Shown: in pieces, positions 6,427-61,296 of the stretch
Position numbering within the stretch: position 1 is the stretch's first letter
Layout of the letters: the number at the start of each line of letters is the position of its first letter
Source of the DNA: Escherichia coli
GTDB taxonomy: Bacteria; Pseudomonadota; Gammaproteobacteria; Enterobacterales; Enterobacteriaceae
Strand: one strand, 5' to 3'
DNA length: 64,000 nt
Assembly: GCF_045037415.1 (NCBI RefSeq)
Contig: NZ_CP173438.1
Translations under genes and position numbers: made by a program
The notes under the pieces: model-generated
Database searches by the model: none
What the model saw: the letters and a program-made list of their open reading frames with translations, nothing else
Told to the model about the DNA's origin: nothing

Positions 6427-6530
6427 GCGGTTGATGCCGGATGCGACGCTTGACGCGTCTTACCGGCCTACTAATTAATGCCGAATCGTAGGCCGGATAA
6501 GGCGTTCACGCCGCATCCGGCCATCAGTAT
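6427..6530. repeat. REP/BIME palindromic elements between convergent malQ and gntT
   Basis: gccggatgcg...cgtcttaccggcctac and gtaggccggataaggcgttcacgccgcatccggcc are typical enterobacterial REP units in opposite orientation. Confidence 0.7.
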
Positions 6531-10995: not shown

Positions 10996-11232
10996 TTAAC
11001 GCAACGCCCACCATTCGTGCAGACAGGCTTTTCCTTCCGGGCAGCTTTTACAACTGCCGGAAAGACAGCCGTCAGGTTCTTCCTGAATCCGCACTGCTTT
11101 TCCCATACTTTCTAGCTGTTTCAGCATGGCGTTAATCATTGGCTGCGGAGTGTTCAGTGTCTGGCTAATCTGGGCCGCTTCCATACGGCCCCGTAATGCC
11201 AGTAAATCACGCACTTGAATGAGCGAAGCCAT
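10996..11232 (-). CDS. feoC: Ferrous iron transport protein FeoC
   Basis: 78 aa product starting [15 protein letters not shown] within the listed 92 aa frame; winged-helix protein with Cys cluster; directly downstream of feoB. Confidence 0.85.
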
Positions 11233-11242
11233 TGTCGTGTCC

Positions 11243-13564
11243 TTAGTGGCAATCGCCAGTGGTACTGGCCGCACAGCAACTGCTTACCGATTTGCGCGTT
11301 GCCAGCAGTTCGATATCCACCCGGCTACGCGCGCGACGCAGCAAACCGATAACCACGATGTTAAACAGAATAACCGCCAGAATGCATACCAGGCTGTAGG
11401 TTGGATGCTGGCTGTAGCTGGCGATCTGATAGAACAATGTTGCCAGCGAGTAAGCGATATTCAGCCCCCACAGAATGGAGAAGCCCATCCAGCCACGGCT
11501 TGATTCACGGGCGATGGCTCCCATCACCGAGATACATGGTACATACAGCAGGACGAAAATCAGGTAGCTGTATGCGGCAGCTGCGCTACCGAATTTCTGA
11601 TCCATCACGCCCATCGCTCCGGTACCCATTTCGCCGTCGCCTTTGCTTGCTTCAATGGGGTTCATCAGTACGCTAAGGCTGAAGGTGTCTTTCAGGCTCT
11701 GCCAGGTTTCATCTACCGCACTGAACAGCTCTTCACCGAGGTTAAATTCCGCCGGATTGAACTCTTCGTCCTGAATATTTTCTGCGGTGTAGAGGGTGTT
11801 GAGCGTACCCACCACCACTTCTTTCGCCATGGCACCTGTAAACAGGCCAACCGTTGCCTGCCAGTTATCTTCATGTACGCCAATCGGCTTGAAGACCGGG
11901 GTGATCACCCGGCTGACGGAAGCCAGCGCCGAGTCGTTGATGTTATCGACGATTTTCCCGCTCAATGAGAAGCTGTTGAAGGCGCTCAGGAAAATGCTGA
12001 CGATGATAATCACTTTACCAGCACGCAGAACGAAGCCTTTCAGACGCTGCCAGGTCTGGATAATCAGGCTTTTAACGTGGGGTACATGGTAGACCGGCAG
12101 CTCCATGACAAACGGCGTCGCTTCACCGCGCATGATGGTGTACTTGAGCATCAGGCCAGTCAGCACCGCCATTACGATACCCAGCATATACAGCGAGAAG
12201 ACCGCCAGCGCACCGTTCTGCCCGAAGAAGGCAGCCGCGAATACTGCGAAGATAGCCAGACGCGCGCCGCAGGACATAAACGGTGCCATCATGATGGTCA
12301 TCAGACGTTCACGCGGTGCATCAAGCGTACGTGCGCCCATTACCGACGGTACGTTACAACCGAAACCAACGATCAGCGGTACAAAGGATTTCCCCGGCAA
12401 GCCCAGCGCCTGCATCAGACGGTCCATCACAAACGCCGCACGCGCCATATAGCCGGAGTCCTCAAGGAAGGAGAGGAACAGGTACATCATGCCGATCTGC
12501 GGCACCAGTGGCAGCACGGTGTTAATACCGCCGCCCAGGCCTTGGGCGAGGAAGATAGTCAGCCAGTCCGGGAAGTGGAGCGTGTAGCCAATCCACTGAA
12601 TACCATGCACAAAGAGTGCTACGGAGCCGACGTCAAACAGCGGCTGTAACGCCCCGCCGATGTTGATAGCCAGCAAGAACATCAGGTACATCACAAAGAG
12701 GAAAATCGGCAGACCGAGGAAACGGTTGAGCACGATTTTATCTACCGCAGTGGTGAAACGGCTGGGTTCTGCCGTCAGGGTGTTGCTTACCACATCACAG
12801 ATGGCAGCAATGCACTGGTAACGCGCATCGGCAATGTGCAGCGCCGGATCGTCCATCTCATTACGCAGACGGGCGAGGGCGGCATCCAGATGCTGCGACG
12901 CTTCACCGGCGTAGGCGCGGCTGTAGATATCGCCTTCCAGCATTTGCAGGCCCAGCCAGCGACGTTGTTTCAGCGGGATGTCGGAAGGCATCACTTTTGC
13001 CAGTGAATCTGCTTCGTTGAGCAGCGGCTGAGCGTAATGCACCAGTTCCACATTCTCGTTAGCTTTATAGCGATCAATCGCCAGCTTGAGCGCTTCAATA
13101 CCGCGACCACGGGTTGAAACCAGCGGGATCACCGGGCAGCCAAGACGCGCCGACAGAGCATCAATTTCAATACGAATATTTTGCTTCTCGGCAATGTCGA
13201 GCATGTTCAGCGCCACGATGCAGGGAATGCCGAGTTCCAACAGTTGCAGCGTCAGGTACAGGTTACGCTCAAGGTTAGACGCATCCACCACGTTAATCAG
13301 CAGGTCTGCGTCGCCACTCAAAATGTAGTGACAGGCGATTTGCTCATCGAGCGAGGTCTGCGATGAGATGGTGGTCAGAGAATAGGTGCCGGGCAGGTCC
13401 ACCAGCGTGACCTGATGATCGGTGGTGGAGAATTGCCCTTCTTTACGTTCGACGGTAACGCCAGCCCAGTTACCTACACGCTGACGTGAGCCAGTAAGCT
13501 GGTTAAATAACGTTGTCTTGCCAGAATTTGGATTACCAATTAAGCCAATGGTTAATTTTTTCAT
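11243..13564 (-). CDS. feoB: Ferrous iron transporter FeoB (GTPase plus permease)
   Basis: Start trimmed to [18 protein letters not shown] (G1 P-loop); 773 aa; polytopic C-terminal domain. Confidence 0.95.
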
Positions 13565-13580
13565 TGTTGTTATCACCGTA

Positions 13581-13808
13581 TTAACAGGAAACCGCTTCCA
13601 CTTCTAATAAGGCCAGATCTTTTTTGCGTAATACCAGGCTCACACGACGGGTTTCGATATGAATGGGGTCGCCGAGTGGAGCGACGCGCACCACATTAAA
13701 AGAGGAGCCAGGTAACATGCCAAGAGAAAGCAGTTTTTGGCGATATGCCGGGCTGATTTCACGGGAAAAGCCAGTAATTTTCCACGCAGTATCTGGAGTG
13801 TATTGCAT
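13581..13808 (-). CDS. feoA: Ferrous iron transport protein FeoA
   Basis: 75 aa SH3-like small protein immediately upstream of feoB. Confidence 0.93.
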
Positions 13809-13914
13809 AGGTGCCTACTTGTTTCTCATTAACTGGATAACTACCTCATGGGGCGTTTGACAGCGACATGAGACCAGATGATTTGCCAACGAAGGAGAGA
13901 TTAAATAATCAACA

Positions 13915-13937
13915 GTACAATGATAATGAGAATGGTT
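13915..13937 (-). promoter_or_regulatory. Candidate Fur box upstream of feoA
   Basis: acaatgataatgagaatgg matches 13 of 19 positions of the Fur consensus GATAATGATAATCATTATC, about 110 bp upstream of feoA start. Confidence 0.4.
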
Positions 13938-14140
13938 TCTATCAGCAATACTTAAAATGTGTGTGAATGTTGGTTTGAATAATAATCTGACTCAATGTTG
14001 ATATGGCTCAAGCTTATATCGCAGCGAAAATATAATTCGCATGACGAATTATTAGGGCTGGTTAATGTTTAATTAAGGTTTCAGTTGTTAATGAAGTGAT
14101 AAATATTAACGGGATATATTATGCGTTTGCTTGTGGAATA

Positions 14141-14180
14141 AAAAGGCCGGAGATATTCTCCGGCACTTTTATGTCAGGCA
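14141..14180 (-). terminator. Rho-independent terminator downstream of tex (yhgF)
   Basis: gccggaga-tatt-tctccggc hairpin flanked by A-run and T-run (bidirectional in appearance). Confidence 0.55.
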
Positions 14181-14245
14181 AGGCGTTCGTTGCCAGATGT
14201 GGCGTGAACGCCTAATCGCGCAGGTTTAGGGGCCAGTCCGGGCGT

Positions 14246-16567
14246 TTAACGTTTTTTGCCCATTGCCGCCGCCAGCGCATCCATCATCGCGCTGTTACCG
14301 GCAGGCTGCACTTCACGCCCACGCGGTTTGGCTGCCGGGCGGTTGTTTTGCGGGCGTTCATTACCGCCGCCGCGACGGGCGTTGGTTTCGCCAGGCTGCT
14401 CGTCCAGACGCATGGTCAGGGCGATACGTTTACGCTGAAGATCCACTTCCAGCACTTTCACCTTCACAATGTCGCCCGCTTTCACCACGGTATGCGGATC
14501 TTCCACAAACTTGTTCGACAATGAAGAGATGTGAACCAGGCCGTCCTGATGCACGCCAATATCGACAAACGCGCCAAAGTTGGTGACGTTGGTCACCGCA
14601 CCTTCGAGGATCATACCCGGTTGCAGGTCGTTCATTGTCTCGACACCATCGGCAAACTGAGCGGTTTTAAATTCCGGACGCGGATCGCGACCCGGTTTTT
14701 CCAGCTCTTTGATGATGTCGGTTACCGTCGGCACACCGAATTTCTCATCAGTAAAGTCAGACGCTTTCAGGTTACGCAGTTCGCTGCTGTTACCCATCAG
14801 ATCTTTCAGTGCCTGCTGTGTTGCTGCCAGAATGCGTTCCACCACCGGATAGGCTTCCGGGTGAACGGTAGAAGCGTCCAGTGGGTTATCACCGTGGTTA
14901 ATGCGCAAGAAGCCCGCGCACTGCTCGAAGGCTTTCGGCCCCAGACGGCTCACTTTTAACAGTTGCTGACGGTTCTGGAACTGACCGTTCTCATCGCGCC
15001 AGGCTACGATGTTTTGCGCCATCATGCGCGTCAGGCCCGCCACGCGGGTTAACAGAGGAACAGAAGCGGTGTTGAGATCGACGCCAACGGCGTTTACGCA
15101 GTCTTCTACTACTGCATCCAGTTTGCGTGCCAGCTGCGTCTGGCTGACGTCATGCTGATACTGACCTACGCCGATAGATTTCGGATCGATTTTCACCAGC
15201 TCCGCCAGCGGATCCTGCAAACGACGGGCGATAGACACCGCGCCACGCAGCGAAACGTCGAGATCCGGGAATTCCTGTGCTGCCAGCTCGGAAGCCGAGT
15301 AAACCGACGCGCCAGCTTCGCTGACGATCACTTTCTGCGCGGTCACTTTCGGGAACTGCTTCTGCACGTCGAGATAGAAACGTTCGGTTTCGCGGGAAGC
15401 TGTACCGTTGCCGATCGCCACCAGTTCAACGTTATGCTTTTCACACAGCGCAGCAACGGTCATCGCTGCTTTTGCGGCCTGCCCGGTATGCGGATAAATG
15501 GTATCGGTCGCCACCAGTTTACCAGTTGCATCGACTACCGCCACTTTTACCCCGGTACGCAGACCCGGATCGAGGCCCATCGTTGCACGCAGTCCGGCAG
15601 GGGCCGCCATCAGCAGATCGTGCAGGTTACGGGCAAAGACGTTGATTGCTTCATCTTCCGCGCGTTCGCGCACGGTGCCCATCAGTTCAGTTTCCAGATG
15701 CATCAACACCTTGATGCGCCACGTCCAGCTCACCACACCTTTGCGCCAGCTATCCGCCGGGGCATTGTTCAGGCGCAGGCCAAGGTGTTCCATGATGATT
15801 TGCTCGCAATAGCTCTCTTTCGGCGGCTCTTCGAACTGCGGATCGGCATTCAGCGAAAGCTGAAGTATGCCTTCGTTACGACCACGGAACATCGCCAGTG
15901 CGCGGTGAGAAGGCACCGTTGACAGTGGTTCGTGATGATCGAAATAGTCGCGGAATTTTGCCCCTTCCTCTTCTTTACCGCTCACCACGGTTGAGACCAG
16001 ATGCGCGTTCTTCCACAGATAATCACGCACTTTCGCCAGCAGCGCGGCATCTTCGGCAAACCGTTCCATCAGGATATAGCGCGCGCCGTCCAGCGCGGCT
16101 TTGGTATCTGCCACGCCTTTATCGGCATCAATATATTGTGCAGCGGCGACTTCTGGCGTGTGTGACGGATCGCTCCACAGCAGATCGGCCAACGGCTCAA
16201 GCCCTGCTTCAATGGCGATTTGCCCACGGGTGCGGCGTTTAGGTTTGTAGGGCAGGTAGAGGTCTTCGAGTTCGGTTTTGCTTAGGGTGGCGTTGATGGC
16301 ATTCGCCAGATCATCGGTGAGTTTGCCTTGCTCGGAAATAGACTTGAGGATCGCCTGACGTCTCTCTTCCAGCTCGCGCAGATAGCTCAGACGCGTTTCC
16401 AGATTACGCAGCTGCGTGTCATCCAGACCGCCGGTGATTTCCTTACGATAACGTGCGATAAACGGCACGGTATTCCCTTCGTCAAGCAGGCGAACGGCAG
16501 CGTCAACCTGTTCCGGGCGCGCCTGAATTTCACCCGCAATAATGCGGCAGAACGAATCATTCATCAT
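14246..16567 (-). CDS. yhgF: Transcription accessory protein Tex (YhgF), S1 domain RNA-binding protein
   Basis: 773 aa ORF with Tex architecture and C-terminal S1 domain; position between feoA and greB. Confidence 0.92.
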
Positions 16568-61230: not shown

Positions 61231-61296
61231 ATAAGACGCATCAGGCAAAAGATGTCGGATGCGGCGTGAACACCTCATCCGATGGTTTAGCCTGTA

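Follow-up and report, generated by a model that had tools for sequence, protein, structure and literature searches.

What does the long gap between tex and the ferrous-iron transport operon feoABC of Escherichia coli hold: a promoter with its regulator sites, or a small RNA or a peptide besides? The question is raised by positions 13809-14245 of a 64,000-nt stretch of contig NZ_CP173438.1 (the whole stretch is called the window below), which a reading made from the letters alone had described as an AT-rich regulatory region upstream of feoA, large enough for multiple regulator sites, a small RNA or a peptide. They correspond to the E. coli intergenic region between tex (yhgF) and feoA, 437 bp long and read here on the minus strand, where the gene order is greB, tex (yhgF, 16567-14246), feoA (13808-13581), feoB and feoC. 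The stretch is, very probably, the multi-input control region of feoABC, a role in which it is already known; the anatomy of its parts, with their coordinates, conservation and fixed spacing, is established here, and protein occupancy and the direction of regulation are taken from published work, mostly on the K-12 strain.

The tex-feoA intergenic region

The borders of the region are set by the two flanking genes:

14246-14248, minus strand: stop codon TAA of tex (yhgF), the upstream border (open reading frame (ORF) 14246..16567; yhgF/Tex annotation in SK1144, the identical strain)
13806-13808, minus strand: start codon ATG of feoA, the downstream border (ORF list and SK1144 annotation)

The sequence between them is 100% identical to that of E. 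coli SK1144, and the region was found in 5425 of 5426 complete E. coli genomes, nearly always as a single copy. Its K-12 counterpart (456 bp, NC_000913.3 3539707-3540162) is without any annotated feature. A FeoA-based scan yielded 80 Enterobacteriaceae loci, with an alignment that covers 25 genera; the tex-feoA synteny holds nearly throughout these loci and the intergenic lengths range from 256 to 553 bp, so that a long spacer is the norm in the family.

The earlier description needs some adjustment in its dimensions and composition. It had put about 440 bp between feoA and the tex terminator; the figure suits the distance from feoA to the tex stop codon (437 bp), but the terminator itself (14137-14164) and a repetitive extragenic palindromic (REP) element lie inside the region, in a GC-rich part, and the distance from the terminator to the feoA ATG is 328 bp. 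AT richness likewise stands for the region as a whole, with a guanine-cytosine (GC) content of 40.3% against 52.4% for the 64-kb window, and above all for its core (13915-14136), which at 32.0% GC has a value as low as is found in just 0.2% of 222-bp windows, at three places in the 64 kb. The composition is nevertheless not uniform: the tex-proximal 109 bp (14137-14245) have 55% GC, unlike the AT-rich core. Recognisable parts fill most of the 437 bp.

Core promoter and Fur boxes

The start of feoA transcription was placed by coordinate conversion. The supplementary table of the ArcA study gives a K-12 (genome version 2) site, 3537888-3537908, as -191 to -171 from the mapped start; with the 1978-bp offset between K-12 genome versions taken into account, transcription would start at window position 13914, 106 nt before the feoA ATG, which agrees with a promoter that can be read from the letters. 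The promoter parts and the Fur sites are then as follows:

13914, minus strand: feoA transcription start site, +/-1-2 nt, derived from the ArcA-site offset
13943-13948, minus strand: -35 hexamer, TTGCTG here and TTGATG in most genera, conserved, 17 bp before TATCAT
13920-13925, minus strand: -10 hexamer TATCAT, 5/6 to TATAAT, 5 nt upstream of the start
13918-13943, minus strand: main Fur box array GATAGAAACCATTCTCATTATCATTG, from -29 to -4, over the spacer and the -10
13978-13996, minus strand: weaker upstream Fur cluster, abutting the FNR box (10.5-bit site of Chen et al., converted to window 13987)
13900-13926, minus strand: candidate overlapping second promoter TTATCA-15-TTTAAT, from hexamers listed in an RNA-polymerase genomic SELEX (systematic evolution of ligands by exponential enrichment) study

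The Fur-box-like element that had been noted at 13915-13937 is well founded. The Fur consensus GATAATGATAATCATTATC is matched there by two overlapping 13/19 sites, at 13916 and 13922, and additional 12/19 matches follow a 6-bp register on both strands between 13916 and 13946; the array is the most invariant block of the 25-genus alignment, and it coincides with published Fur clusters. The information-theory model of Chen et al. has such clusters at K-12 version 2 positions 3538006 (10.5 bits) and 3538059 with 3538065 (10.9 and 13.4 bits), which convert to window 13987, 13934 and 13928, respectively, the last two falling within the noted element. According to Chen et al., two Fur boxes had been marked at feo by Kammler et al., and as cited in PMC2189734 and PMC3688515, it was Kammler et al. 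1993 who first marked the feoABC Fur boxes and an FNR site. The operon also belongs to the direct Fur regulon of the uropathogen CFT073.

Spanning -29 to -4 relative to 13914, the Fur box overlaps the core promoter, and Fur boxes as a general rule overlap the -35 or the -10 of the promoters that they repress (PMC7315122). The hexamer array laid over the spacer and the -10 thus likens feoA to the Fur-repressed iron-uptake promoters of fhuA, fepA and the aerobactin operon, from which it differs in two respects: its box is just 13/19 to the 19-bp consensus, and it has a second, distal Fur cluster beside an activator site.

The RNA-polymerase genomic SELEX study reports a signal, with an H-NS flag, at the yhgF-feoA spacer, and the hexamers that it lists are located at 13926-13921 (TTATCA) and 13905-13900 (TTTAAT). 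The latter lies in the first 20 nt of the transcript, GTTGATTATTTAATCT, a block conserved across genera, and a second start may lie about 20 nt downstream of the mapped feoA start.

Upstream regulator sites and candidates

That the region would regulate feoA and have room for multiple regulator sites is borne out by its K-12 counterpart, for which there is evidence of FNR, ArcA, OmpR, Fur, NsrR and H-NS. Upstream of the promoter the following parts are recognised, two of which (the FNR box at 14011-13998 and the dyad at 14051-14033) account for the further AT-rich palindromes mentioned in the sequence-only reading:

13998-14011, minus strand: FNR box TTGAGCCATATCAA, 9/10 to TTGAT-N4-ATCAA, centre -90.5
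14085-14105, minus strand: ArcA site, also an OmpR/RstA-candidate motif, TATTTATCAcTTCATTAACAA, -191 to -171
14061-14083, minus strand: conserved AT-rich block TGAAACCTTAATTAAACATTAAC, adjoining the ArcA site, kept across many genera in the alignment
13958-13973, minus strand: RstA/OmpR-like motif CCAACAttcaCACACA, -59 to -44, the second candidate of Gerken et al. (-165 to -150 from the ATG)
14033-14051, minus strand: dyad TAATTCGtcatGCGAATTA, candidate NagC operator, 15/19 identical to the nagE-nagB dyad

The FNR box is present in almost all of the 80 loci. Chromatin immunoprecipitation (ChIP) data, named earlier as a check on this locus, do exist for K-12, with a published FNR peak from ChIP with sequencing (ChIP-seq) at version 2 position 3538050 and a scored FNR site TTGAGCCACATCAA (14.6 in the FNR weight matrix); the authors of that study propose that repression by Fur masks the activation of feoABC by FNR. 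In 75 of the 80 loci the FNR box stands 79-80 bp from the -10/Fur block, and such a fixed distance argues for a phase-dependent interaction.

From which kind of position would FNR then act? Class I sites lie near -61.5, -71.5, -82.5 and -92.5. The centre at -90.5, a value that hinges on the second-hand start site, suggests action from a class-I-like upstream position, and feoA resembles class I FNR/CRP promoters in having a single FNR box well upstream of the -35 at a fixed distance, which suggests dependence on the helical face. Most characterised FNR promoters are of class II (-41.5), unlike feoA. A class II arrangement was considered and rejected, as no alternative -10 lies at the right distance, the best candidates placing the FNR centre at -32 to -36.

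The ArcA site of K-12, TTGTTAATGAAATGATAAATA, has 17.6 bits, carries peaks from both ChIP-seq and ChIP on microarrays (ChIP-chip), and lies at -191 to -171; it maps to 14085-14105, with one base changed in this strain. Expression of feoABC is 3.7-fold lower in an arcA mutant. The same block is conserved in Escherichia, Salmonella, Citrobacter, Klebsiella and Enterobacter, and the AT-rich neighbour at 14061-14083 possibly consists of further ArcA repeats.

OmpR and RstA candidates overlap with this picture. Gerken et al. observed, in an electrophoretic mobility shift assay, that OmpR shifts a K-12 fragment with TTATCAtttcaTTAACA, at -294 to -278 from the ATG (PMC7315122), and this motif is the same sequence as the ArcA site. 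A smaller K-12 fragment with the proximal motif alone gave no OmpR shift (PMC7315122). Degenerate GTTACAnnnnGTTACA-like or TACA-N6-TACA motifs, candidate contacts of OmpR or RstA, are found in this strain at 14103-14087 and 13973-13958. In Salmonella and Citrobacter the RstA-like box reads TACAttccgTCACA, which fits the quoted RstA motif. As described in PMC7315122, Jeon et al. 2008 found that RstA binds and activates the feoA promoter of Salmonella enterica; in that account the binding is demonstrated for Salmonella only, and the E. coli box is a candidate.

NagC is listed in databases as a regulator of feoA, and the dyad TAATTCGtcatGCGAATTA is a candidate for its operator on the strength of its likeness (15 of 19 positions) to the dyad TAATTCGTATCGCAAATTA of the K-12 nagE-nagB intergenic region, which we take to be the nagB NagC operator. 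Within Escherichia the arms of this dyad (TAATTCG-N4-GCGAATTA) are kept and its centre is variable; it is not conserved in other genera. Finally, NsrR gives a ChIP peak in CFT073, 95 bp ahead of the feoA ATG, and is also found at feoA in K-12.

Conservation and weight of the evidence

Conservation is strongest in ATTGATGATAGAAACCATTCTCATTATCATTG, where the -35, the Fur array and the -10 come together. The 25-genus alignment has further islands in the ArcA/OmpR block and the AT-rich block beside it, in the FNR and RstA-like boxes, in the opening 20 nt of the transcript and in the Shine-Dalgarno sequence. The feoA locus of Salmonella enterica shares the tex-feoA arrangement and the 80-bp spacing between its Fur/promoter block and its FNR box, and an ArcA/OmpR-like block and a long hairpin-bearing leader are also there.

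The K-12 feoABC promoter has the same locus and gene order, an identical Fur array, -35 and -10, and the same ArcA/OmpR, FNR and RstA-like motifs and terminator as this strain. The two intergenic regions are separated by 31 substitutions and a 19-base REP indel, and these differences cluster in the spacers and the REP rather than in regulator sites: 11/90 in the ArcA-FNR spacer, 5/30 in that from the ArcA site to the terminator, and 9, together with the 19-nt indel, in the REP, as against 2/39 in the core promoter and 1/106 in the leader. Each of three motifs has one base changed from K-12: T to C in the ArcA site, C to T in the FNR box and G to A in the RstA-like box. Two more changes lie between the -10 and the start, and the NagC-like dyad differs in its centre.

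A separate observation concerns the spacer 14012-14117 (minus strand), which is split into haplotype groups in E. coli, with at least 99% identity in 1099 records, 90-95% in 925 and 80-90% in 3100. The spacer is about 12% diverged from K-12, roughly 2.5 times as much as feoB third codon positions, and the split probably reflects neutral drift along phylogroups.

Several points weigh against the assignment of the region to feoABC control as drawn above. FNR matches of at least 9/10 occur nine times in the 64-kb window and Fur-consensus matches of at least 12/19 about 100 times, so that neither is rare by count, and the significance of these motifs therefore rests on conservation and published binding data. 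The binding data are mostly those of K-12, from which the ArcA site, the FNR box and the segment between the -10 and the start each differ by one or two bases in this strain. The position of the start site is second-hand, coming from supplementary-table offsets and not from a primary mapping paper, and the FNR centre at -90.5 is not that of class II (-41.5). A sigma-70 promoter scan of the region returned no promoter at threshold, the true feoA promoter being missed as well because its -35 is only 3/6 to consensus. Moreover, the factors assigned here leave out some conserved parts: the AT-rich block at 14061-14083, the leader hairpin and the opening 20 nt of the leader.

A constrained leader

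The transcript would begin with a leader in which three parts can be placed:

13809-13914, minus strand: feoA leader (5' untranslated region), 106 nt, from the start site to the ATG
13814-13820, minus strand: Shine-Dalgarno sequence AAGTAGG, 5-6 nt from the ATG and almost unchanged in 59 leaders
13833-13877, minus strand: leader hairpin, from covariation, with inner stem TCTCATG (13873-13867) / CATGAGG (13850-13844)

The leader shows 0-1 substitutions relative to E. albertii, E. whittamii, another Escherichia species and K-12, comparisons in which feoB third codon positions are 5-27% different and the ArcA-FNR spacer 12-23%; for E. albertii alone, no substitution in the leader stands against 26.5% at feoB third positions and 22.7% in the ArcA-FNR spacer. 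Within E. coli, 5309 of 5425 records have a leader at least 99% identical, whereas an equally long upstream spacer is at 80-90% in 3100. Could such a leader, with its module at 13833-13890, be a cis-acting post-transcriptional RNA element that governs the translation of feoA or the stability of its mRNA, perhaps with a small RNA (sRNA) or a protein as its ligand? This would add to the promoter reading, and we regard it as a tentative and rather doubtful proposal, for which conservation far above that of neutral sites is the first argument.

The hairpin is the second. It recurs in 26 different sequences, from genera that include Escherichia, Salmonella, Citrobacter, Phytobacter, Kosakonia and Pluralibacter, and in these 84% of cells are paired, as compared with 34-46% when the partners are slid; three of the pairs have changed on both sides, and an outer stem is possible between CTGG (13877-13874) and CCAG (13836-13833). 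Klebsiella, Raoultella and Kluyvera have a hairpin of unrelated sequence at the same place in the leader. Folding of the hairpin segment gives a mean z-score of -1.25 over 21 lineages (p 0.0006), compared with -0.01 inside feoB. Furthermore, the ~70-nt module (13833-13890) is either there or missing in its entirety, and it has been lost in the clade of Enterobacter, Lelliottia, Leclercia, Silvania and Huaxiibacter, with leaders of about 34 nt (the comparison of the module included loci L040, L042, L069, L072, L079 and others).

Against an RNA element, the whole E. coli leader is no stabler than its shuffles (fold z +0.38), RNAalifold found no consensus pairs in the 59-sequence, all-genus leader alignment, and a long-range stem GUUGGC/AGUUAGC that it proposed in two families was dropped, as it showed no covariation on the full alignment. 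An intergenic control segment upstream of the FNR box also has a negative score, at z -1.02, although this control is confounded by dyads and terminators. No Rfam family matches the leader, no sRNA regulator of feoABC is listed in a 2022 compilation, and the entire Enterobacter clade manages without the module. The invariance could also be explained at the DNA level, by sites downstream of the start such as the NsrR peak and the candidate TTATCA-15-TTTAAT promoter.

Three specific partners of the leader were considered and set aside. RyhB was dropped, its pairing with GUUGGCUAA, found by eye, going through the RyhB terminator stem only and not being kept in E. coli; the effects of CsrA on feoABC looked indirect in the literature; and FeoC is unlikely to bind the leader dyad as DNA, given a loop of variable length (about 5 to 22 nt) and the lack of the segment in Enterobacter. 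No description of the leader invariance or of its compensated hairpin was found in the searchable literature.

The tex 3' end and the small-RNA and peptide alternatives

The GC-rich end of the region belongs to tex and holds two features:

14174-14217, minus strand: REP element in the tex 3' untranslated region, core GATGTGGCGTGAACGCCTAATC at 14196-14217
14137-14164, minus strand: tex intrinsic terminator, GCCGGAGAATATCTCCGGC then CTTTTTATT (terminator scan; inverted repeat)

With three copies of the core GATGTGGCGTGAACGCCTAATC in the window, where none is expected by chance, the element between the tex stop and the terminator fits the definition of a REP; the other two cores lie at 6496-6517 and 61258-61279. 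It is the most strain-variable part of the region, 19 nt shorter than in K-12, and a weak Rfam match to naRNA4, presumably a REP-derived family, falls at 14145-22. The terminator hairpin (14164-14146) begins 82 nt past the tex stop and has an 8-bp stem with 6 GC pairs and a 3-nt loop, the T-run ending at 14137; it is two-way in shape, because the plus strand reads the hairpin and then ACTTTTATGT. In Salmonella, the tex 3' region has REPs and is without a counterpart of the E. coli terminator hairpin.

The small RNA suggested earlier might be an independent plus-strand transcript ending at this symmetric terminator (14146-14164), which was also called on the plus strand, or else an RNA derived from the tex 3' untranslated region. 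A sub-threshold Rfam match to STnc390, a Salmonella sRNA, lies on the plus strand at 14112-14178 (29.4 bits, with matching flanks and compensatory stem changes). These 29.4 bits are, however, far under the gathering score of 50; no STnc390 match was obtained at E 0.1 in the tex-feoA loci of Salmonella subsp. arizonae and diarizonae; and the subsp. arizonae region, read directly, has REPs in place of the hairpin, whose own pattern occurs in E. coli loci only. STnc390 was thus rejected because the Salmonella tex-feoA locus is without the hairpin. Rfam scans of the region and of four related loci gave only sub-threshold matches, STnc390 over the terminator and naRNA4 in REP-bearing stretches, and both are set down to generic terminator or REP likeness. 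The plus-strand tail ACTTTTATGT is a poor T-run, the promoter scan found no promoter-like site on either strand, and the K-12 RefSeq record has no RNA here, yet asompR is annotated 3 kb away. With no family at gathering score, no RefSeq RNA and no sRNA regulator in the 2022 compilation, the suggestion of a small RNA is not sustained, and we consider an independent sRNA most improbable.

A small peptide fares no better and seems scarcely credible. The earlier remark that no ORF exceeds the cut-off of the ORF track agrees with the longest ORF overlapping the region, which has 39 codons' worth of product (39 aa); what remains is a 24-codon ORF with a TTG start (13889-13815), an ATG mini-ORF, MRNK, and plus-strand ORFs of 25-39 aa. 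E. coli, K-12 and E. albertii all have the 24-codon ORF intact, with its end 6 nt short of feoA and just ahead of the ribosome-binding site; but the near-invariance of the leader is reason enough for its being intact in Escherichia, which therefore says nothing on coding. In a cross-species alignment of the small ORFs, those that could be aligned outside Escherichia, among them the ones of Salmonella, most Citrobacter and Klebsiella, are broken by loss of the start or by stops or frameshifts; C. amalonaticus alone keeps the 24-codon frame intact. The TTG is preceded by a pyrimidine run, CTCTCCTTCG, and not by a Shine-Dalgarno sequence, and the plus-strand ORFs cross the promoter and the Fur box in antisense.

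Neighbouring genes and an exceptional genome

Downstream in the operon, feoC (10996-11274, minus strand) has 20 mismatches in 237 nt relative to K-12 (91.6% identity), with feoA at 99.6% and feoB at 97.4%; in the SK1144 annotation it starts 10 nt past the feoB stop, and in K-12 feoB and feoC overlap. In E. coli EC488, a urinary isolate (locus L083, NZ_CP109874.1, 3501-4400), the intergenic match ends after the first 121 bp, an IS1 transposase gene lies about 60 bp beyond the end of the match, and the next gene is rtcB, so that feoABC and the genes following it are deleted in EC488.

A multi-input control region for ferrous-iron uptake

Read from tex towards feoA, the region as a multi-input control element very probably works as follows. 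Transcription of tex would end at the REP and the intrinsic terminator (14217-14137). Sites for activators responsive to oxygen or to the state of the envelope would come next: ArcA (-191 to -171, also in the OmpR-shifted fragment), the NagC-like dyad, FNR (-90.5) and the RstA/OmpR-like box (-59 to -44). They would act on a weak sigma-70 promoter (TTGCTG and TATCAT, 17 bp apart, with the start at 13914), which Fe2+-Fur would shut by occlusion, overriding the activators, since the Fur hexamer array covers the promoter spacer and the -10; a second, weaker Fur cluster would sit against the FNR box. The transcript is predicted to open with the leader of 106 nt, at whose end lies the ribosome-binding site AAGTAGG.

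Under anaerobic conditions enterobacteria import ferrous iron mainly through FeoABC, which has a role in gut colonisation and virulence. Its promoter integrates signals of iron (Fur), oxygen (FNR, ArcA), envelope and osmolarity (OmpR, RstA), nitric oxide (NsrR) and amino sugars (NagC). Such multi-signal control is already established for K-12, and the assignment of the region therefore adds no new biology. What is added here is a map, to the base, of the parts in this strain, the FNR-promoter spacing fixed across the family, and a constraint on the leader much stronger than in the adjacent coding sequence. If it holds true at the RNA level, this constraint would point to an unstudied layer of feo control.

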